DNA from: Ptychomitrium polyphyllum
Lineage: Eukaryota
Reading direction: 5' to 3'
DNA: 64,000 nucleotides
NCBI GenBank assembly: GCA_973851085.1
Contig: OZ316775.1
Coordinates: 10,912,001-10,976,000, forward strand
The position numbers were made by a program, and so were the translations under genes. The notes under the pieces were generated by a model. That model saw nothing but the letters and a program-made list of their open reading frames with translations. It ran no database searches and was not told the origin of the DNA. The number at the start of each line of letters is the position of its first letter. Position 1 is the first letter of the stretch. Shown here piece after piece: positions 14,013-45,556 of the stretch.

Positions 14013-15814
14013 GTTTTTCTTCTTTGCTACCCCTGCACTTCGTTGCAAAGCGTTAATCTGCTGCGTTTATAGGATGTCACGTAGTTGGTAGCTGTCGTTT
14101 GATGATGGTTTCTTAAAGAAACGGCTGAGCAAGAGCACTTGGTTATCAAGGGTATCCCTGAGCTAATAGCTTACCTCATGCTATTCTGATTCATGGAGAA
14201 AGCTATGATTATCTCTGCAAAATGGGCCAACGGCTAAGCGTGTACTGCCGAACGACTTCTTCAGAATTGTTGATTGTTACAGTGACGCTAGTTGACACGG
14301 TAACTTGGAGAACCTGAAGTATGAACCAGGTGTTATGTGAGTGCTTCTTAACTGAGCTCTTCCAGCACCTGAAGAGCCCTGAATTACACAATCTTTGATA
14401 CAGGCAAAACAGGTAAAGAATCGAGAAAGCATAACCGGTATGTACAAAACACACATTTATACCTTTCAATTGACTCATGACCTACTACGGCCCTTGACAA
14501 CTTCTGCACTCGAAGGAGGTCATCTTGATAAACAAAGCAACTGGTCTCAAAAAAAGTGGGACAAGTAGAACACGTTGAATATTCCTACGAGAGTGCCTGG
14601 AACGAGAGCCAAGTCATGCAGAACTACTGACCCAAATCGGACCACAAGCCAACAACGAATTGAAGAATCACAAATCAAACTGGATCTACTCCCGAACAAA
14701 GAATAAGGCATCATTAATTCCGAAATGAAGGATCACTCGCAAAGACTAGCCTAACACCAAAACCAGGACTCTCTCTAACTCGACCTAACCCAAAACCATG
14801 AACTAGTGCGATCCTCTTCAGCACTACCCGCAATCACAAAAACCCGACTACACAGAAACACTCCTTAAACACAAAAATTAATCAAACACCTACGGTTCAA
14901 GAATCAAACCACCGCCTCCTCACTCCACCCAAAAACAGTATTCTCGTAAACCACTGTCCGAGACTAAATACGAGTTTCCACTACTCTACTCCTATCTTCG
15001 TACTTGCACATCACACACCTCGCAAACAACTGTTGATTCACAAAGACGTGACTTCACCTACACCTCAGTACGAAACCCAACCCCAGTTTCAGTTTCTCAA
15101 TTCCCTGAACAGCCAACCCAACTATACAACGGCGGTCGCTGCCTCACGCGCTCGCTCGCGAACGTTCGCGGACTTCCTCTTCTCCAAAATCGAAACTCAA
15201 CATTCGCCTGAGAAAAAAGAGAACGACGTCGCGCCTGCCAGGCATTTGCAGAGACGCAATCTGACACCCCCGTGCCGGCACATGACAATCGACACATTCC
15301 AAGCGAGACAAGGCACAGCAGGCACACGAAAACAGAAAACTCCTCGAGAGGCAAGCCCACTATTCACCCAATCTCCCCGACAAAATGGGCTGCACGGCAG
15401 CCGATGCATGATGCGGAGGCGGCAGGACTCCGGCGTCCGCCGAGTAACTACCCCAGCAAAGTCGGGCCGGGAAGGGGTCCCGGAGACGAGGGAACCCAGG
15501 ATTGTAGGCGAGGGCAGTACCAGACGCCCATAACCCGGTAACCGGAGATACACCGGCCCCGGTTTCTGGTCAGACTTCCACGGAGGACGCCCAAACAAAA
15601 AGCCAATGAGGGTCACCAAGGAATAGACTTCGCTCAAGAATGACGAACAGAGATCTGTGCGTCTGTTAGGGCAAAGACAGGGGCCGAGAGTTCGAGCCCT
15701 AAAGCGCGAGGGGGGACGAGGAGGTCGGTCTTTCACGGCCATCGCCACGCCAGGGCTTCGCGGGCTGCCCCCCTCTTCCCCGTCGCTGTGCACCTCGGAG
15801 CCCCGCCCGCAGCC

Positions 15815-17109
15815 ATGAAGTTCTCCCCCCGTAAGTCCCCCTCTCGCCCTTGTCTCCGCAACTTTCAGCGCCCGGGATGGTTTAGGGCCGCGTGCTGTGT
15901 GGTGGGTGTGCGACTCGGAATAGATGCCGTGTTCCGTTCCGGAGAGACGTCGCGTATGGGCGAGGTAGCCCTAGATTTGGGAAATTCGATCACCTGGCTC
16001 TCTGGGCGTCCGTGCGCTCGCAGGCCCAGGCCTTGGGTTCATGAGGTGCTCTGGAGTGAGGTTCGTGTCCCGTTCTCAGATGGGTGTGGTTGATGCAGGT
16101 GTGAGCAGCTCCAGGCGCAAGTCGAGGAAGGCACACTTCAGTGCTCCCTCCAGCGAGAGGCGCATTCTCATGAGTGCGGCCCTGTCCTCGGACCTCAAGA
16201 ACAAGTACAATGTGAGTGACACGGTGTTGGTCATGCTGGCCTTGCTCGTGTCTTGGCGTAATTCGGCGACAAGCAATCTGGAACATTGAGAACTGGTTGC
16301 ATCTAGTTGCGAAATGAGGTCCTCGGGGCTGTGGCGTCGACATGGCGTGGTCTTCGACAGACTCGGGGTTTCTGGATGACGTGTGTCTGGTCGGACCGTG
16401 TCTCCGCAGTGAGTGGGGTGTTGACGTGTGTGGTGGGTGGGTTGCAGGTTCGGTCTGTACCAGTGAGGAAGGATGACGAAGTGATGGTGGTGCGCGGCAC
16501 GTACAAGGGCCGGGAAGGAAAGGTGGTGCAGGTGTATCGCCGGAAGTGGGTGATCCATGTGGAGCGCATCACTCGTGAGAAAGTGAACGGTGAGTTCCTT
16601 GCTGCAGTGGAAGGTGGAGGGTGGTGTCGATGTTTGTTTGCGGCCGGGCCTGTTCGAGGCTCCTGGGCCCTGGTTACGTGGTCTCTGGGGGTTCGCGTGC
16701 ACGTTCGCTCTACTGCGGAGTAGAGGAGTAGGCGCAATCTAGTCCTTGTGCTGTTCGAACTGGGAACACGCTCTTTGCGCATTGTGAGTAGTGTGCTGCT
16801 GGTCGGGCACGTAATTAGGGTTAAGGGCACTGAGCGTTCAGGTCGGTTTTGTCGTGTGAGGTATAGGCTTCATTGTGAAGCCGACTGTGCACTGGGTTGG
16901 GACGAGGTGATGGAGTTTTCTGTGTGATGCGTGCAGGAGCCACCGTGAACGTGGGCATCGACACATCGAAGGTGGTGATCACGAAGCTGAAGTTAGACAA
17001 GGACCGCAAGGCCCTGCTAGAGCGCAAGGGCAAGGGGCGGTCTGCAGAGAAAGGGAAGGGGAAGTTTACGGATGCGGATGTGGCTCCACCCCTGCAGGAG
17101 GTGGATTAA
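15815..17109 (+). CDS. RPL26: 60S ribosomal protein L26 (uL24), copy 1; exons 15815-15830, 16099-16211, 16448-16589, 16937-17109; 147 aa
   Basis: [121 protein letters not shown]...; all introns GT-AG; exons total 444 nt. Confidence 0.97.
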
Positions 17110-17384
17110 GGATTCTGTAAATTTATCAATGGAATCAGTTCATACTACCGGTGTTTGCAGTGAGAATGTGTGCGATGCACGGGTCGGGTGGTCATGTGCT
17201 GCTGAAGTCGGTGTATGGCCCCATCTGGGATGAATGTGAATGTGACTCATCGCTGTGTTGGCAGGAGTATTGCATGGTAGGCCCTCCCTTGTGCTTGGAT
17301 TGTGACATGCGTGCGGAAGTCGCATTTTTCCCAGTCTATTCGGATTCTGTTAGGTCGGGTTGAAGTGTCGGTCGTTTGCTTGCA

Positions 17385-18345
17385 GCCAAGTGATGTGGCC
17401 GATGAGGCCGACCATGATGCGGACAGATTGGCTCTCATATCTGATAGCCTGGTTACTGATGGCGAGCAAGTGTGGAAGTAGGGTGTTGTAGGTCGTAGGT
17501 TCTTTCTGTTAAGAGGTTGTCTAATGGAACCTGAGTTGACACGGCTGTGTCCAGTGTTTCTCTGACCAGGGACTGTCGTAACCTGGGTGCTCCTCTGCAG
17601 TACTCGGACGTTTTGAATCGCGCCGGTTATGTCTGCACCCAACAAACTGATTACAGGCTGGACGTAACTGCCAGCTTAGTATGAGATGGTGCTACATGAA
17701 TTTCACCCTTCACTGGTACAAACCACACTTCATGGTTGTGTCGTTTTCAAACTGGCGGGTACACCGGAAGCCCATCGGTCGTGTTATTGTGAGTTGGCTG
17801 AGTTGGATTTTGTGTCCGCTGTTTGCACGCGACAAACTGATTCCGGGCTGGAGGTAGCTGCGAGCTTAGTGTGACAAGGACATGGTGCCACAAGGACGCC
17901 TCCGCTGGTCCAAGTTGCTCGGGACGGTTGTTGCGTTTTCGGAACTGGTGGGACAATCGTTTTTGCGAGGCGAAGGGTTGTATGTGGCAGCATGGTGAGT
18001 CGAAGGTGGCTGTGTTTGTCAGGTCGTCGCACCTGACCAGGACTGTCACCTTGATGTGTTCGTGGGAGTGGCCGTGTACCTTGGCCGAGTGATGCGGCTT
18101 GTAGGTCGACTATGATGCGGACTGACCTGGCTGAGCCGTGTATGATAAACCTGGTGGTAACCGATGGCAATACTGTAGTGCAGGGGATAGGCGCTGTCTT
18201 ATTTCATCCTACGTTTGATAGGGTTTCCTCTTGGTTGTGCCGGTGTGGAGGAAGCTTTGTTGCCAAGTGATTAGACCTTTTAGGTCGACCATGATGCGGA
18301 CAGAGAAGGCTACGCCATATCTGACAATTTGGTAACTGATGGCAA
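17385..18345 (+). ncRNA. Three diverged ~80-nt box C/D-like elements downstream of RPL26 (17385-17463, 18084-18168, 18260-18345)
   Basis: Shared layout GCC(A/G)-A-GTGAT...hairpin...ATGATGCGGAC...TGGT(A/T)A-C(T/C)GA-TGGC with a GCCA/TGGC terminal stem. No rRNA guide recognised. Confidence 0.35.
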
Positions 18346-18577
18346 GCTTGGTACACTAGAGTGGGTCTGCAGTGTTTGCGATTGGCGGGTCTTCGTTCAC
18401 TGTTTTGTTTGCTGGGGGTGTAGGTGGACTTTCCCGGACAGTTGTTTTGGTGGAAGTCTTTGCATCACATTGGTGATGGCGGTTGCATACATGCTAATTG
18501 CTTGCCCGCTGAGTGTGCGGAGAGGCTTAGGATGCGCTGATGTACGGTTTGGGGCTTTTGCAAGGCAATATTTATAT

Positions 18578-20451
18578 TTGTGGGTTTGTTATGCCTTATG
18601 TAATATACTTGTATAACAGTTTTTGAATACGAGTTTTGAGGATTATTTTACTTTTTCGTATCTGTAGGAAGATCTTATACTAACGTTTTCTAGTTTTTGA
18701 ATTTTGAAGCTGTGAGAAGAACTGGTGTGTGTAGCAGATTATTTAGTTTTTCGGTCACAGGATTTAGGGGACTCGGTATTTTCTATGATTCCCACGGTAG
18801 GCATGTGCGTAGAAGTCGGATGTCCTCCACTTGGGTGAAAATCCTCGAGTACTTTTAGTTGGAAGTCTTATATTTGAATTTGATCAGTAGTATTTATCGG
18901 TTTACTTTGCAGTGAGTACATGTTTCAATTAAATCAGTTTTGTTTGGCTAATACTTATTTTTGTCTAATATGTAAATTTTGGAAGAGAAGATATTTCGCC
19001 ACTCAGGTGTTTGCAGAATTTTTTTCTGTATACCAAATTTTGTCTCGTCGAAAGATATTTTAATGTACAAGCCAGTGTGGATGGTAGTTTAATCAGTTCT
19101 TTGTCTACATAATGGTAAGTATCTTACAGTTAGCTTGATTAATTATTAGCTACAACTTCTTGATTAATTATTAGCTACAACTATATGTACCTGTTTAAAC
19201 AACGAAAGCATTTCGATATATTAATGATAATACTTTCGATATACATGTGTTCCAAGTGACGTCAAATAAATTCGATGATGCATATAGGATGATGATATGG
19301 CATTGATTTTAGGATAGTCCTCGTTCCTTGCAACAAATACGAATGGTTGATGCCAGCCTCAACCATTCTAAAACATCCACATCCATATCATATAAGAATG
19401 AGTATCAACATATCCAAATGCTCTCATTCCAAGATCGAAAAACTCAACAAAAATCCTTGAAGCCNNNNNNNNNNNNNNNNNNNNNNNNNNNNNNNNNNNN
19501 NNNNNNNNNNNNNNNNNNNNNNNNNNNNNNNNNNNNNNNNNNNNNNNNNNNNNNNNNNNNNNNNTTGTGGGTTTGTTATGCCTTATGTAATATACTTGTA
19601 TAACAGTTTTTGAATACGAGTTTTGAGGATTATTTTACTTTTTCGTATCTGTAGGAAGATCTTATACTAACGTTTTCTAGTTTTTGAATTTTGAAGCTGT
19701 GAGAAGAACTGGTGTGTGTAGCAGATTATTTAGTTTTTCGGTCACAGGATTTAGGGGACTCGGTATTTTCTATGATTCCCACGGTAGGCATGTGCGTAGA
19801 AGTCGGATGTCCTCCACTTGGGTGAAAATCCTCGAGTACTTTTAGTTGGAAGTCTTATATTTGAATTTGATCAGTAGTATTTATCGGTTTACTTTGCAGT
19901 GAGTACATGTTTCAATTAAATCAGTTTTGTTTGGCTAATACTTATTTTTGTCTAATATGTAAATTTTGGAAGAGAAGATATTTCGCCACTCAGGTGTTTG
20001 CAGAATTTTTTTCTGTATACCAAATTTTGTCTCGTCGAAAGATATTTTAATGTACAAGCCAGTGTGGATGGTAGTTTAATCAGTTCTTTGTCTACATAAT
20101 GGTAAGTATCTTACAGTTAGCTTGATTAATTATTAGCTACAACTTCTTGATTAATTATTAGCTACAACTATATGTACCTGTTTAAACAACGAAAGCATTT
20201 CGATATATTAATGATAATACTTTCGATATACATGTGTTCCAAGTGACGTCAAATAAATTCGATGATGCATATAGGATGATGATATGGCATTGATTTTAGG
20301 ATAGTCCTCGTTCCTTGCAACAAATACGAATGGTTGATGCCAGCCTCAACCATTCTAAAACATCCACATCCATATCATATAAGAATGAGTATCAACATAT
20401 CCAAATGCTCTCATTCCAAGATCGAAAAACTCAACAAAAATCCTTGAAGCC
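18578..20451. other. Assembly gap (100 N, 19465-19564) flanked by an 887-bp direct duplication (18578-19464 = 19565-20451)
   Basis: The sequence just after the Ns repeats the 887 bp just before them, as expected for unmerged overlapping contig ends. Confidence 0.9.
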
Positions 20452-20937
20452 AAAAGAAAAATACTTCAATGCGTACTGTAAAATTTATACCTAACCTCAA
20501 CAAGAAATTCCTATCTAAAGGCATACTAACCCTCTCACATACCTTTGCACCATAGACTTTATAGTCAAGAAAAGAGAATCACTAAAACACTAGAAAACGT
20601 TAGTATAAGATCTTCCTACAGATACGAAAAAGTAAAATAATCCTCAAAACTCGTATTCAAAAACTGTTATACAAGTATATTACATAAGGCATAACAAACC
20701 CACAAATATAAATATTGCCTTGCAAAAGCCCCAAACCGTACATCAGCGCATCCTAAGCCTCTCCGCACACTCAGCGGGCAAGCAATTAGCATGTATGCAA
20801 CCGCCATCACCAATGTGATGCAAAGACTTCCACCAAAACAACTGTCCGGGAAAGTCCACCTACACCCCCAGCAAACAAAACAGTGAACGAAGACCCGCCA
20901 ATCGCAAACACTGCAGACCCACTCTAGTGTACCAAGC

Positions 20938-21898
20938 TTGCCATCAGTTACCAAATTGTCAGATATGGCGTAGCCTTCTCTGTCCGCATCATGGTCGACC
21001 TAAAAGGTCTAATCACTTGGCAACAAAGCTTCCTCCACACCGGCACAACCAAGAGGAAACCCTATCAAACGTAGGATGAAATAAGACAGCGCCTATCCCC
21101 TGCACTACAGTATTGCCATCGGTTACCACCAGGTTTATCATACACGGCTCAGCCAGGTCAGTCCGCATCATAGTCGACCTACAAGCCGCATCACTCGGCC
21201 AAGGTACACGGCCACTCCCACGAACACATCAAGGTGACAGTCCTGGTCAGGTGCGACGACCTGACAAACACAGCCACCTTCGACTCACCATGCTGCCACA
21301 TACAACCCTTCGCCTCGCAAAAACGATTGTCCCACCAGTTCCGAAAACGCAACAACCGTCCCGAGCAACTTGGACCAGCGGAGGCGTCCTTGTGGCACCA
21401 TGTCCTTGTCACACTAAGCTCGCAGCTACCTCCAGCCCGGAATCAGTTTGTCGCGTGCAAACAGCGGACACAAAATCCAACTCAGCCAACTCACAATAAC
21501 ACGACCGATGGGCTTCCGGTGTACCCGCCAGTTTGAAAACGACACAACCATGAAGTGTGGTTTGTACCAGTGAAGGGTGAAATTCATGTAGCACCATCTC
21601 ATACTAAGCTGGCAGTTACGTCCAGCCTGTAATCAGTTTGTTGGGTGCAGACATAACCGGCGCGATTCAAAACGTCCGAGTACTGCAGAGGAGCACCCAG
21701 GTTACGACAGTCCCTGGTCAGAGAAACACTGGACACAGCCGTGTCAACTCAGGTTCCATTAGACAACCTCTTAACAGAAAGAACCTACGACCTACAACAC
21801 CCTACTTCCACACTTGCTCGCCATCAGTAACCAGGCTATCAGATATGAGAGCCAATCTGTCCGCATCATGGTCGGCCTCATCGGCCACATCACTTGGC
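20938..21898 (-). ncRNA. Mirror copies of the three box C/D-like elements (20938-21023, 21115-21199, 21820-21898)
   Basis: Part of the right inverted-repeat arm. Confidence 0.35.
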
Positions 21899-22173
21899 TG
21901 CAAGCAAACGACCGACACTTCAACCCGACCTAACAGAATCCGAATAGACTGGGAAAAATGCGACTTCCGCACGCATGTCACAATCCAAGCACAAGGGAGG
22001 GCCTACCATGCAATACTCCTGCCAACACAGCGATGAGTCACATTCACATTCATCCCAGATGGGGCCATACACCGACTTCAGCAGCACATGACCACCCGAC
22101 CCGTGCATCGCACACATTCTCACTGCAAACACCGGTAGTATGAACTGATTCCATTGATAAATTTACAGAATCC

Positions 22174-23468
22174 TTAATCCACCTCCTGCAGGGGTGGAGC
22201 CACATCCGCATCCGTAAACTTCCCCTTCCCTTTCTCTGCAGACCGCCCCTTGCCCTTGCGCTCTAGCAGGGCCTTGCGGTCCTTGTCTAACTTCAGCTTC
22301 GTGATCACCACCTTCGATGTGTCGATGCCCACGTTCACGGTGGCTCCTGCACGCATCACACAGAAAACTCCATCACCTCGTCCCAACCCAGTGCACAGTC
22401 GGCTTCACAATGAAGCCTATACCTCACACGACAAAACCGACCTGAACGCTCAGTGCCCTTAACCCTAATTACGTGCCCGACCAGCAGCACACTACTCACA
22501 ATGCGCAAAGAGCGTGTTCCCAGTTCGAACAGCACAAGGACTAGATTGCGCCTACTCCTCTACTCCGCAGTAGAGCGAACGTGCACGCGAACCCCCAGAG
22601 ACCACGTAACCAGGGCCCAGGAGCCTCGAACAGGCCCGGCCGCAAACAAACATCGACACCACCCTCCACCTTCCACTGCAGCAAGGAACTCACCGTTCAC
22701 TTTCTCACGAGTGATGCGCTCCACATGGATCACCCACTTCCGGCGATACACCTGCACCACCTTTCCTTCCCGGCCCTTGTACGTGCCGCGCACCACCATC
22801 ACTTCGTCATCCTTCCTCACTGGTACAGACCGAACCTGCAACCCACCCACCACACACGTCAACACCCCACTCACTGCGGAGACACGGTCCGACCAGACAC
22901 ACGTCATCCAGAAACCCCGAGTCTGTCGAAGACCACGCCATGTCGACGCCACAGCCCCGAGGACCTCATTTCGCAACTAGATGCAACCAGTTCTCAATGT
23001 TCCAGATTGCTTGTCGCCGAATTACGCCAAGACACGAGCAAGGCCAGCATGACCAACACCGTGTCACTCACATTGTACTTGTTCTTGAGGTCCGAGGACA
23101 GGGCCGCACTCATGAGAATGCGCCTCTCGCTGGAGGGAGCACTGAAGTGTGCCTTCCTCGACTTGCGCCTGGAGCTGCTCACACCTGCATCAACCACACC
23201 CATCTGAGAACGGGACACGAACCTCACTCCAGAGCACCTCATGAACCCAAGGCCTGGGCCTGCGAGCGCACGGACGCCCAGAGAGCCAGGTGATCGAATT
23301 TCCCAAATCTAGGGCTACCTCGCCCATACGCGACGTCTCTCCGGAACGGAACACGGCATCTATTCCGAGTCGCACACCCACCACACAGCACGCGGCCCTA
23401 AACCATCCCGGGCGCTGAAAGTTGCGGAGACAAGGGCGAGAGGGGGACTTACGGGGGGAGAACTTCAT
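22174..23468 (-). CDS. RPL26: 60S ribosomal protein L26 (uL24), copy 2; exons 23453-23468, 23072-23184, 22694-22835, 22174-22346
   Basis: Mirror of copy 1 with the same translation. Confidence 0.97.
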
Positions 23469-26257
23469 GGCTGCGGGCGGGGCTCCGAGGTGCACAGCGA
23501 CGGGGAAGAGGGGGGCAGCCCGCGAAGCCCTGGCGTGGCGATGGCCGTGAAAGACCGACCTCCTCGTCCCCCCTCGCGCTTTAGGGCTCGAACTCTCGTC
23601 CCCCGCCCTTGCCCTAACGGACGCATAGTGCACGAATTCAGCCCCAACGGCCGGACGGACGATCCCGTGGACGAGCGTCCGTCGATGCTCACCCACGGCG
23701 GTGCCTCCGTCTCTGAGTCGTGTATTTCGCCAAGGTTGTCACATGCAGGCTTCCTTCGCGGACGACGCCTAGAGGGTGCCGCGAGTTGGGTCCTGTCGAT
23801 CAGTGCTTGCCGCTTTTTACCTGTATCGTAGACGCGCGGCCGCGGTTGGTCTTCGGCGTGCTGGCTTCGGTGAAGGTCTGGCTGGTTGCTAGGAAATGCT
23901 TGTTGCTTCTTGTCGAAGGAGTCTTTGTGCAATCATCAGCTTTGGCGGGCGGAGGCGCGTCGCTGTCATTCACGTGCAGTTGACTGGGGTTGGAGACCAC
24001 GTCATTGCGTCGCATTAGTCGGTTTTTTTTGCTTTGTGGAGAGCATTTATCTGACTCTCGGTTTAGAGTCTCTTTGGATAGCGTATAGTTTCGGAGTGGA
24101 GTGCAGATGTTTGGGGTGCCCGGTCGGGACTGTTTTGGAGGGACTTACCGCCAGGTTAACTTATTGTCCTTAGAGGCTGGGGAGTCGATAGAGCTTTCGG
24201 GGACTTGGTGGTAGGGAAACAGTACAAAGCCCGGGGTTTGTTTGTTGAGTTGACGTAGGCGTGGATTTGTTTTCTGAGGGATCAGTGTTGTTTTAGAACT
24301 AATTGTTCTTTACTGCGGGGTGAAGCGTTTCGAGGAATTGCGTTTGAAGTCTTTGGGAGTGTTTTTTGGGTTAGAGTTAAGATGGCTTGCCGACCACTCG
24401 GGTTCCTCATTGGTCTGCCGTTCATGCTGATCGGCTTTGTGCTATCCGTGATTGGCGTTGTGCTATGGATTCTTGCGTAAGTGTCTTATTGTTTTTTGAT
24501 TGTGTGCTGATTCTCCTGCCGTTTTGCTGTCTTTGCCACGGTTTTTTACGCTTTGTTTTCATTGTTTTTGTAGTTGAGTCCAGTGCACATAGCCCTTGAG
24601 GACTTCTTCAAGGGAATAAGACTTTTGAAGCTTCCTTTGAACACTGTACTGGAATGGTGCACAATGATAAGCCCAACCTTTTGGACATGGTTTTCAATTT
24701 TTTTGCTCATGTGTACTGCTGTCTGATAAAGGCTCGACACTGCGTTGTGTGCTGAACTCAGCTACGATGTTTGAGACTTCTGTGATAGGCTTGAGAACAG
24801 GGTAGAGAGCTGGAGATTTTTAGTCTTTTTACTCCTGTAGCATTTGAATTCGTACAGAAGGCAGAGTGCATGAAGTCGGTGCTGACAAGTGAACGCCGTC
24901 TGTTGTGATGTTGCTGTGCAGGTCGATCCTGGTGTGTCTTTGCCCTTGTTGTATCTGTTGTGCGCCTCTTCCTCCTCTTGCCGTGAGCCTTATCAAAGCT
25001 CCTGTCAGCATCATCTACTGGTTCACTGAGCAAATACCTTGTTGAAGTTACAGAAGATGCTAGTGTAGCACACTTACGCTCATTACTTGTGATTATTTTG
25101 AAAGAACTTTTCAGAATAAACACCACATTGGAAGCGAAGGTAAGGCTGCTGACTACAGAACTGCAATATATGTTACTTCAGCTGCTTTTCAATTCTTTGC
25201 TAGAAAGTTTGGAGGAAACACTGAAACCTGGAGTTGGAAGATACAGAATAATTAGGGTGTTGCACAGGATACTTTGTGGCCTAGCGGTTTTGTCGTTTCC
25301 CGAATGTTGTACACAAAGCCGTCCACGATATAAAGATTTCCTGATCTCTCTCAGACTGTTTTCCACACGAGTATCCGTTATGTTGTGAAGAGAGATGCAT
25401 GACCTGTGAGTACTGAAGTTGAATTCGTGGTACCGGCAGTTCTGGATGTTTACTCTACAACGGTGCTGTCTTTGAACGATGTGTTACCTTCACTTACTCA
25501 AGAGTGTGTTCCTTATCAGAAGCATCAAGAGTGTTTTCCTTTCACCCATCCACATTCTTTACTGTATTCTTACACGGTTCAGTGAAATACCAATTCGGTC
25601 ATGTAGACTTTAGAAATCACACACCAGTTGTCTCTCTTGATATCTTCCTCCGTGGCAGCAAACTGCATACGCTCCCTTCCATTATGTCATAATGCAGTGG
25701 TGTGACCAGGGACAGCTTTGGCATCTGGGAGGCTTGTGTGAACTAAGAGAGCGGAACGAGTTCTAATTGGAATGAAAGCATGCTTCCTAATGAATTCCGC
25801 AAACGAGAGCATTTGTGTAGGCGCCCACTGCCTTTACAGAAAGAAGGCCTCAGTCCCCCATATCATAACATGGAATGGTTCAAAGACCTACTCGGAGGGG
25901 AATGGAACAGTCATCCATCCAGAATATTTCCACAGTGCAGGTCACCAAAATATTATGGAAAAGTTTGCAGAATCTTTCAGAAGCGAACATTCTCGTGTAG
26001 TAAGCCATGGCATTCTAAACTGGGGATAACGTCCGCGGGGACTTGGCAACGGAATCGCACTGCGCAGGGGCACCAGGATGAGATCACCTGCAGTGGTGGT
26101 GAGAATTGTTCTGCACACCCATCCGCCATCGCCATCGCCACCACCACCGCAGGGGAGGGGTCGCTGGTGAAAGGGGTCCATGCTCTGCACCTGAGTTGTC
26201 ACGAAGTGTCATTGTGTTCTTTCTCGCTCTGCTGAGGGGGTCGCACAATTGGACGCC

Positions 26258-43407: not shown

Positions 43408-45556
43408 ATGTATCTCATGGCTTATACGAACGAGAATGGTGATAAGGTGTACACTTTGAAGGTCAGTAACTAGGTTTCAATTTAGGATTTGTGTGATGGG
43501 TGAAGCTTGAGTTTCTCTTTTCGATGTTTGACATGACGAAATGGACGTAGGGTTTGAGGGTGTCACATGCGTGTTCTAGGTCTTGCTGGTTCGGATTTGG
43601 GTTTTTGCGTTCTGTAGTTGTTGGATCTTTAGGGTTAGGAACGACGCGGGCTGGCATCCTTGGCGGGGTGCCTTCCTAAGAACGTGGAACGACGTCGCAC
43701 TTTTGTGCGAGTTTTTGTCGTGGAATCCTTTGTTAACGTCGGAGAGCGGTGCGTTCGTACCTGGGAGCTCTGAGTCGTCCGTGATTGAGAGCTTCGGTCG
43801 TGAATGTGGGGTTGTATATTCCATTGCCCTGGCGGCAGCGTCGCGGCTCTTACCCTTTGGGACAGACCATGCCACCTACAACGGATCGTTTTAGTGGATT
43901 TGAGATGATGACAGGAGTGCACCCTTGGCGGGGTGTCCCTCTAACAGTATGGAGCGATCACTTGCATTCATGTGATGCAGTCCAGGTCGTAGATTCCTCC
44001 GTTAACGTCAAAGATTGATGCGTTTGCGTTACGAAGCTGTCGGTCTTTAGGGATTTATAGCTTCAACGTGAAATCGGAGTCGCGTATTCCATCGCTCTGG
44101 GGAGCAGCGTCGCTGCCATTACTTTTTGGGACAAACCATGCTACTTCCAGCAAATTATTTCATGTTCTGAATTGTTTTCTCTTGATTATTGTGTTCTGAA
44201 ATTGCGGGAGGAGCATCCTTGGCGGGGTGTTTCTCTGACAGTGTGGAGCGACCATTCGTCTTTGTGATGCACGTGTAGTCGTAGAGTCCTTTGTCAACGT
44301 CAGCGAACGATGCGGTCATGCGATGATGCTTCTCCTGCTTCGGTTGGAAGAGCATATTTGTGTGAAAGTAAAGTTGCATATTCCATTGCCTTGGGGAGCA
44401 GCGTCGCTGCAGTTACGCCTTGGGACAGACCATGCCACTTACATTTCTGTACACTTAAGTATAGTTGCGTTTCTTTTCTGTTTAGACGCCCCTTAGATTT
44501 TCATCTTGTGTTTCTATTCAGTTTTTAGACCGATGATTACATCATATCAAAATACCATCTTTCGGATCGTAGTACACCTCTGGGTGGTGGTGATTTGTTA
44601 CGTATGGTGGTCTTTAATGATATGTATCATAATTTTCTTCGTGTCATGTACGAAAAGCAGAGGTTATTGACACCGCATGAGCTAATTCTCGTCAGTTACA
44701 GGTATAGCATATGCATCATCTTTAGGTGGTGAGCTACTGCCTTTTTAATGGCAACAGGTTCAATCCATGGTGCTATATTTTTGTATATTTTCTACTTCTA
44801 CATATGCTGATATGATTCTGAAGCTGGTGATATTGATGTATCCGAAAATTACTGATTTTATTTCATGTTTAACTTATCACCGTCTTTCGACTGAGGTTTC
44901 TAAGTTCGTGTCAAACGTTTGGCATCTGTATGGGCGAAGACTGGGTGAAGACAGAATACATAGACCTGTTCTGAATTTATATGTTGGACGAACATGCACT
45001 ACCAACTGACAGTCTTCGTCGTCAGGCCCAATTTCACTTTAGCGATGACGGGGGTAGTTCCCTTTTGGCGGCGTACTCTGACAGAGTGAAGCGACCATCC
45101 GCGTCTCTGTGATTTGACTTGTGGTCGTATAATTCGTTGTTAAAGTCGCGGAACGACGAGGTCACGTGTAGAAGCTCTTGTTCATTCGTGAGCAATAGAA
45201 TACTCAAGTGGGAGTGAGGTTGCATATTCCATTGGGTTGGAGAGCAGCTTCGCTGCCATTATTCTTTGGGACAGACTATACTACTTTTATTATACATTGC
45301 TTATAGGTTATTTCTTTGAGCTGAGTTCAGTTGTCTTTATTTCTAGAGTACTGATTTTGGTTTTTATTATTGCTATGTTTGGTTAAACGTTAACCTTTTG
45401 AGTTTGATTTTGCAGAAGGAGTCACCTTTGGAGGAGCCAACTCACTCGGCTCATCCAGCTCGGTTCTCTCCTGATGACAAATTTTCGAAGCATCGGATTA
45501 TCTGCAAGAAGAGGTTCAACTTGTTACCCACACAGCAGCCTCCACATAATTATTAG
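43408..45556 (+). CDS. NOP10: H/ACA ribonucleoprotein complex subunit 3 (Nop10), 64 aa; exons 43408-43461 and 45416-45556
   Basis: [64 protein letters not shown], with the [12 protein letters not shown] hallmark and one GT-AG intron of 1954 nt. Both exons are too short for the ORF track. Confidence 0.97.
43548..43555 (-). promoter_or_regulatory. Telo-box (TAGGGTTT on +) at the start of the NOP10 intron, upstream of the snoRNA cluster
   Basis: Motif present, with a variant TAGGGTTA near 43630. Confidence 0.4.
43641..43883 (+). ncRNA. snR30/U17-like H/ACA snoRNA, copy 1 (NOP10 intron)
   Basis: m1 ATATTCCAT at 43816-43824 and m2 AGACCAT at 43864-43870 lie on opposite sides of the 3' hairpin base; ACA box at 43878-43880. 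The 5' end is approximate. Confidence 0.8.
43905..44152 (+). ncRNA. snR30/U17-like H/ACA snoRNA, copy 2 (ACA position reads CCA)
   Basis: m1 GTATTCCAT at 44084-44092 and m2 AAACCAT at 44133-44139, in the context GACAAACCATGC. Confidence 0.7.
44202..44446 (+). ncRNA. snR30/U17-like H/ACA snoRNA, copy 3 (most canonical)
   Basis: ANANNA (AAAGTA) at 44365-44370, basal stem AAGTTGCAT/ATGCCACTT, m1 at 44378-44386, m2 AGACCAT at 44427-44433, ACA at 44441-44443. Confidence 0.82.
44527..44613 (+). ncRNA. Box C/D snoRNA, snR39B/SNORD2-like, degenerate boxes
   Basis: AGACC/GGTCT terminal stem and C-like ATGATTA. The guide ACCATCTTTCGG (44554-44565) is complementary to conserved LSU rRNA CCGAAAGAUGGU. 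D' and D boxes are non-canonical. Confidence 0.55.
44821..44899 (+). ncRNA. Box C/D snoRNA, U51/snR39-like (LSU site equivalent to yeast Am807)
   Basis: AAGCT/GGTTT stem, C-like GTGATAT, D' CTGA at 44852. The guide CACCGTCTTTCG (44878-44889) lies one nt before D box CTGA (44891-44894); the D+5 rule selects the second A of CGAAAG. Confidence 0.65.
44936..45017 (+). ncRNA. Dual-guide box C/D snoRNA: U33/snR55-like guide at D and U25/snR56-like guide at D'
   Basis: 8-bp terminal stem GAAGACTG/CAGTCTTC and C-like GTGAAGA. CATAGACCTGTT-CTGA (44959-44974) pairs with 18S AACAGGUCUGUG, and CATGCACTACCA-A-CTGA (44993-45009) pairs with 18S UGGUGGUGCAUG. Confidence 0.8.
45042..45292 (+). ncRNA. snR30/U17-like snoRNA, copy 4 (most diverged, no ACA at the expected position; possible pseudogene)
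   Basis: m1 ATATTCCAT at 45224-45232, m2 variant AGACTAT at 45273-45279, GCAGC-TTC-GCTGC hairpin. Confidence 0.65.

Follow-up and report, generated by a model that had tools for sequence, protein, structure and literature searches.

The single coding-region intron of a moss NOP10 gene carries four repeats of about 240 nt that resemble the snR30/U17 family, and it is highly probable, judging from sequence comparison, that these are moss snR30/U17-type H/ACA RNA genes with an m2 motif, AGACCA, that complements UGGUCU in the host 18S rRNA in a predicted 18S-processing pairing. snR30/U17 is required in yeast for 18S rRNA production, and its pairing with rm2 is essential there (PMC2664660). The mechanism is a known one; what is new is the lineage, in which the RNA had been reported missing, together with what is, as far as we could find, the first changed m2/rm2 pair. 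A 2021 review (PMC8351944) describes snR30/U17 as unidentified in Arabidopsis and suggests that plants may have evolved another route, and the family table of PMC7601244 (2020) includes no plant, all 14 of its entries having AAACCAU as m2. The words snR30, U17 and SNORA73 are absent from the main text of a survey of snoRNA families in plants (PMC5122169), and no report of a plant or green-algal snR30/U17 was found among the listings and abstracts of the open literature searched.

The NOP10 locus and its four repeats

The window, by which we mean the whole stretch of 64,000 nucleotides that was analysed, includes a NOP10 gene of 64 codons (Table 1), and the top named relatives of the protein encoded next to it are from Ceratodon purpureus (61-71%) and Physcomitrium patens (55%), which marks the host as a moss. 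Four weaker snoRNA candidates (44527-45015), all below Rfam cut-offs, lie between the third and fourth repeats. Elsewhere in the window, an RPL26-like gene is flanked by a 3-kb inverted duplication, 99.8% identical (15655-18698 and 20584-23628), with an exact 887-nt direct repeat between the inverted arms (18578-19464 and 19565-20451); the inverted duplication is either recent or an assembly artefact.

Table 1. Features of the NOP10 locus, in window coordinates.
Feature	Position	Strand	Details
NOP10 coding exon 1, 18 codons	43408..43461	+	17/18 residues common to NOP10 exon 1 of metagenome contig L135
NOP10 intron, GT..AG, snoRNA cluster host	43462..45415	+	splice sites predicted from sequence
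snR30/U17-like copy 1	43642..43883	+	5' end inferred from closing stem; H-like AGAGCG 43743-43748; m1 ATATTCCAT 43816-43824; m2 AGACCAT 43864-43870; ACA 43878-43880
snR30/U17-like copy 2, likely degenerate	43907..44152	+	H-like AGATTG 44012-44017; m1 GTATTCCAT; m2 AAACCAT 44133-44139
snR30/U17-like copy 3	44203..44446	+	m1 ATATTCCAT 44378-44386; m2 AGACCAT 44427-44433; ACA 44441-44443
C/D snoRNA candidate, SNORD96-like	44527..44613	+	Rfam 25.2 bits, E 0.082; gathering 43
H/ACA snoRNA candidate, snoR74-like	44651..44780	+	Rfam 24.5 bits, E 0.7; gathering 44
C/D snoRNA candidate, Z196/R39/R59-like	44819..44901	+	Rfam 32.1 bits, E 0.019; gathering 55
C/D snoRNA candidate, SNORD33/Z195-like	44938..45015	+	Rfam 31.6 bits, E 0.004; gathering 44
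snR30/U17-like copy 4, likely degenerate	45046..45292	+	m1 ATATTCCAT 45224-45232; m2 AGACTAT 45273-45279
NOP10 coding exon 2 through stop codon	45416..45556	+	Pfam PF04135 Nop10p, E 3.4e-14

The earlier note had described three copies between 43816 and 44433. Those copies are real, and a fourth lies beyond these coordinates, with its m1 at 45225. The reported m1, TATTCCAT, is present in four of four (starting at 43817, 44085, 44379 and 45225), and AGACCAT is indeed the m2 of copies 1 and 3. Aligned over ~240 nt, the copies have a mean column identity of 77%. TATTCCAT by itself is a weak signal (9 occurrences in the window vs 3.0 expected); the composite pattern of m1, gap, GAC, m2, 7 nt and ACA occurs twice, compared with 0.00 expected from 100 shuffles.

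In copies 1 and 3 a spacing of exactly 7 nt separates m2 from the ACA box downstream. The corresponding box is CCA in copy 2 and TTA in copy 4, and these two copies are not counted as working members; both have likely decayed. The m2 of copy 2 is mismatched to the host rm2, that of copy 4 forms one G-U with it, and copy 4 is also without an H-like box. A reading of the copy 2 AAACCAT as a functional ancestral form was rejected, given the lost ACA box and the mismatch to the host rm2. No copy is flawless: copy 1 has a G-ended H-like box and a single A-G mismatch in its distal stem, and copy 3 lacks an H-like box at the conserved place, where its sequence is CGAACG (44304-44309). The AGAGCA at 44349, which the Rfam alignment takes as the copy 3 H box, was rejected since it lies ~45 nt downstream of the place of the homologues' AGATGA.

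A separate complementarity was noted near the start of copies 1 and 3, in their first 5' hairpin (window 43656-43664 and 44215-44223), where CATCCTTGGC matches GCCAAGGATG of 18S rRNA over 10 nt, at a site (positions 795-804 of the 18S piece L040) ~110 nt beyond rm2. The core of CATCCTTGGC, CCTTGGC or TTGGC, is kept in land-plant copies and not in algae, and the match could be an extra 18S contact or chance.

Hairpin structure and homologues in metagenomes

No Rfam cut-off was reached anywhere in the window in an Rfam scan. The SNORA73 model (RF00045) scored 18.3 bits (E 0.038) in the 3' hairpin of copy 3, below its cut-off of 74 bits, and had no match on copies 1, 2 and 4. The literal family motifs AUAUUCCUA and AAACCAU, which the earlier note had named as the yeast/vertebrate forms in agreement with Table 1 of PMC7601244, are replaced by AUAUUCCAU and AGACCAU, and it is for this reason that we call the moss RNA a variant.

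The pattern used to scan metagenome contigs allowed C or T at m1 position 5 and a purine at each of m2 positions 2 and 3, and was unconstrained at m1 position 9. The 93 stretches listed correspond to 91 loci; diverged members can be missed because the pattern demanded ACA and GACA, and the same pattern gave 2 chance matches in viral contigs. A covariance model built from 13 plant-type hairpins was applied to 89 of these 91, with L102 and L151 (contig of L097) left out, and matches at E 0.26-0.39 (L076, L130 and L125) were counted as chance. The model separates 19 green loci at 75-99 bits (partly training set) from 33 other U17-like loci at 21-46 bits, and the remaining 37 are without a match at E 0.05. 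Copies 1 and 3 score 81.3 and 95.3 bits, both as part of the training set. The SNORA73 cut-off is passed by L077 (103.5 bits), L080 (101.1), L119 (101) and L071 (94.2), which score 35-46 bits with the plant model; that several of the other U17-like loci pass the SNORA73 or Afu_309 cut-offs links the hairpin found in plants with the snR30/U17 family.

The green loci include two land-plant-like groups, represented by L103 and L106, and algal RNAs lying within an intron of EBP2 (compared with the EBP2 of Bathycoccus prasinos, L075 is at 86% and L072 at 72%). On contig L135, NOP10 exon 1 precedes a tandem array of five copies, of which the fifth is interrupted by the contig end. AGACCAT occurs with ATATTCCAT in all 8 distinct green hairpins, land-plant-like and Bathycoccus-like algal; AGACCAT is also seen in 4 of 31 chance matches, and the 27 distinct non-green U17-like hairpins have AAACCAT (21), AAGCCAT (4), AGACCAT (1) or AGGCCAT (1). 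ATATTCCAT, which contains TATTCCAT, is also present in 21 of these 27, and TATTCCAT is frequent in the U17 of invertebrates and fungi, so that m1 is a widespread form and m2 the lineage-specific one. The proposal that m1, too, is a plant compensation is thus not upheld, the rm1 form ATGGAATA being also that of fungal-type 18S. Within the two tandem arrays, the three copies whose m2 is not AGACCAT (copy 2, copy 4 and one L135 copy) all lack the ACA box, and AGACCAT copies keep ACA or ATA (3 vs 3 unselected copies, Fisher p 0.1).

Variant m2 motifs were also seen in animals: AGACCAT in an RPS2-like intron of an eriophyoid-like mite (L086:2998-3078, minus strand), AGGCCAT in an RPL18 intron (L089:761-836), and AAGCCAT in L080, L081, L109, L119 and L131. 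Going by these animal sequences, m2 is less invariant than published.

In the 13-sequence alignment the 3' hairpin consists of three helices, and at the pocket base m1 lies on one strand and m2 on the other. Of 260 cells in its basal, upper and distal 5-bp stems, 91.9% are paired, and 9 of the 20 pairs have changed on both sides; the distal 5-bp stem reaches 98.5% of cells and includes 3 invariant pairs. None of 500 shuffles had as high a pairing score, and slid controls gave 33-52%, over which the consensus structure is favoured since it was drawn from the same 13 sequences. RNAalifold, unprompted, predicts nearly the same fold. Single-sequence folding of the 3' hairpins was no better than that of shuffles (z 0.47, 0.29 and -0.17 for copies 1-3). 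In the 5' domain, two stems are enclosed by a closing stem, both sides of which vary between mosses and algae, and the human U17 5' layout (PMC7601244) has the same two stems within a closing stem before the H box. At the box H place after this domain two L135 copies have AGATGA, a canonical ANANNA; copies 1 and 2, L103, L110 and L075 have ANANNG, and copies 3 and 4 have no such box.

These features bear on whether the array itself is active. The family could be real and all four copies inactive, in a decaying array with the working gene elsewhere, a reading that is compatible with the m2/rm2 match and that we regard as unlikely. None of the four is without damage, either to a box or to the distal stem. 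Moreover, other contigs of two runs, X1 (in which one contig is identical to the window stretch, so that the run may be its source) and X2 (from the same sample), are of similar depth and match parts of copies 2, 3 and 4 (window 44090-44144, 44376-44435 and 45117-45302) with 7-36 differences, and further paralogs are therefore present elsewhere in the genome. However, m1, m2, the spacing and ACA are intact in copies 1 and 3, copy 3 scores like the single-copy homologues (as a training-set member), the G-ended H-like boxes recur in the single-copy homologues L103, L110 and L075, and an array in the NOP10 intron is retained in L135.

Predicted pairing of m2 with the host 18S rRNA

The host rm2 was read from contigs of four runs compared with an 18S reference (L040:540-790), whose own rm2 form is TGGCCT. 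Coverage of rm2 is provided by X1, X2 and X5, the last carrying another organism label, from another study, and having contigs that also match the NOP10 locus; contigs of X3 fall outside rm2. A C686T difference from L040 makes the host rm2 TGGTCT at full depth in both X1 (6086 of 6086) and X2 (50023 of 50023), which represent one sample, and X5 likewise has TGGTCT (6682.8 of 6682.8 depth, 12 contigs). The X1 18S contig has a depth of 6086 vs 35.6 for the NOP10 contig and spans 629-768; positions 683-685, 687 and 688 are >50 letters from its end, with no difference from L040 listed. The reading covers rm2; rm1 (647-654) lies within ~30 letters of the X1 contig end, and 4 of the 11 differences of this contig fall near its ends and are unlisted.

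With TGGTCT as rm2 and AGACCA as m2, both partners therefore differ from yeast at the same pair. The match with UGGUCU that the earlier note had predicted from bryophyte 18S amounts to six predicted Watson-Crick pairs, at -7.0 kcal/mol, whereas the yeast/vertebrate AAACCA forms one A-C mismatch with UGGUCU (-3.2 kcal/mol). The suggestion that an rm2 of UGGUUU would speak against pairing was too strict, because AGACCA pairs with UGGUUU through one G-U, at -4.5, about equal to AAACCA on UGGUUU (-4.3). On UGGCCU, AGACCA has one mismatch (-1.9) and AGGCCA six Watson-Crick pairs (-9.1). What matters is the asymmetry: AGACCA can pair with both forms, but AAACCA mismatches UGGUCU. A test of covariation across plant lineages had also been proposed; the m2/rm2 match holds in the 18S of the runs of two mosses, which is its scope, and it counts as one event because it rests on these two compared with the yeast/fungal type.

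For the range of rm1 and rm2 forms we used 50 eukaryotic 18S pieces present as contaminants in bacterial assemblies. The pieces comprise 29 with ATGGGATA/TGGCCT, 18 with ATGGAATA/TGGTTT, one with ATGGAATA/TGGTTA, one covering rm2 only (TGGCCT) and one covering neither. We take the first group to be of flowering-plant type (GGGAUA/UGGCCU) and the ATGGAATA/TGGTTT group to be mostly fungal. All 48 pieces that cover rm1 have one of these two forms (19 ATGGAATA, 29 ATGGGATA), which are those of the contaminants and not the host's own, and both pair with TATTCCAT over 8 nt, ATGGGATA with one G-U. The 18S motif had 12 matches in viral contigs, none of them rRNA, and plasmids yielded a single record that offered nothing new, its identity to the reference of flowering-plant type being 99.2%; plant 18S sequences were absent from the PMC5122169 supplements searched. 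As an incidental observation, at least 50 contigs (L013-L062) in GTDB bacterial and archaeal assemblies represent eukaryotic 18S contamination.

It is improbable, in our estimate, that the RNA is a real snR30/U17 whose m2 change is tolerated drift, the rRNA letter having changed for reasons of ES6 folding. Such drift would be eased by the ability of AGACCA to work on UGGUUU too, m2 forms that wobble on UGGUUU do occur in animals (four distinct AAGCCAT hairpins, AGGCCAT in L089 and AGACCAT in L086), and a single evolutionary event is documented. Against this, the ancestral AAACCA mismatches once rm2 is UGGUCU, pairing with rm2 is essential in yeast, and AGACCAT is fixed in all 8 of the green hairpins, those of mosses and of Bathycoccus-like algae alike, although the stems on either side of it vary. 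An ordinary pseudouridylation guide with a pocket resembling m1/m2 through convergence would fit the H/ACA build and the low Rfam SNORA73 score, and we give it very little credence.

Proposed action and comparison with known systems

On the preferred reading, a snR30/U17-type RNA with a matched m2, the RNA would be excised from the NOP10 intron and, by analogy with yeast (PMC2664660, PMC12095548), would bind Cbf5/Nop10/Nhp2/Gar1. By the same analogy a three-way junction would form in which m1 and m2 keep the ES6 segments rm1 and rm2 separated, ES6 would be kept from early folding and the platform domain could then assemble; no pseudouridylation would be expected, and the distal stem would dock a protein. 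The A-U pair at m2 position 2 may have become G-C early in green plants, probably via a G-U step, for which the easiest order would be the snoRNA first (A to G, wobbling on U) and then the rRNA (U to C). A further change, to AGGCCA with UGGCCU, would be required in flowering plants. Given the matching change in moss rRNA, green plants likely use the same mechanism, and the matched m2/rm2 change in the green lineage argues that plants keep the ES6-chaperone step.

We lean towards a broader reading in which snR30/U17 is present throughout green plants and has been overlooked as m2 tracks rm2, with AAACCA:UGGUUU outside plants, AGACCA:UGGUCU in green algae and mosses and an as yet undescribed AGGCCA:UGGCCU in flowering plants. 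If so, the present alignment would be a probe for the missing Arabidopsis gene, and the prediction for a flowering-plant gene is sharp: an m2 of AGGCCA, with a predicted m1 of UAUUCC or UAUCCC on GGGAUA. No flowering-plant homologue with a plant-like hairpin was found among the 91 metagenome loci, the plant hairpin model had no match (best E 0.55) in 5 bacterial assemblies contaminated with plant DNA, and a motif search in parts of the supplements of PMC2875012, PMC7464842 and PMC5122169 returned no flowering-plant homologue; these blanks do not show absence. The PMC5122169 supplement includes CrACA54, a Chlamydomonas orphan H/ACA RNA with three copies and a multi-stem 5' part, which is a candidate Chlamydomonas member of snR30/U17.

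Features that the moss RNA shares with snR30/U17, i.e. SNORA73 RF00045 (PMC2664660, PMC7601244, PMC12095548), are the placement of m1 and m2 at the base of the 3' hairpin pocket, a GAC preceding m2, a distance of 7 nt from m2 to ACA and a conserved distal stem. Like vertebrate U17 it is ~240 nt long, with a 5' domain of two stems and a closing stem, and like known U17 it is repeated in tandem within an intron of a gene related to the ribosome. It differs in having AGACCAU rather than AAACCAU as m2, AUAUUCCAU as m1 and an H box that is often G-ended or missing, in residing in NOP10, which itself encodes an H/ACA core protein, and in scoring below the Rfam cut-off. In the family as described in PMC2664660 the 7-nt spacing between m2 and ACA is invariant, the m1/rm1 and m2/rm2 pairings were shown by compensatory mutation, function is ascribed to the pairing and not to the letters, and the distal stem of the 3' hairpin is essential in yeast.

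A second comparison is with Aspergillus Afu_309 (RF01512), whose cut-off is exceeded by L100 and L128, with ATATTCCAT/A and AAACCAT 7 nt before ACA. Together with L108, these loci (L100:2782-3068, L128:168-443) have m1, m2 and ACA at U17 spacing, and Afu_309 thus looks like the filamentous-fungal snR30. Its m1 form is the same as in moss, whereas the fungal m2, AAACCAT with a fungal-type rm2 of TGGTTT, differs.

The moss change also provides natural genetic evidence for the m2/rm2 helix, which earlier was available only for m1/rm1, in Trypanosoma brucei. The T. brucei snR30 (PMC2664660) resembles the moss RNA in having an altered docking motif together with a compensating 18S change; however, T. 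brucei changed m1/rm1 and kept m2 invariant, whereas moss changed m2/rm2.
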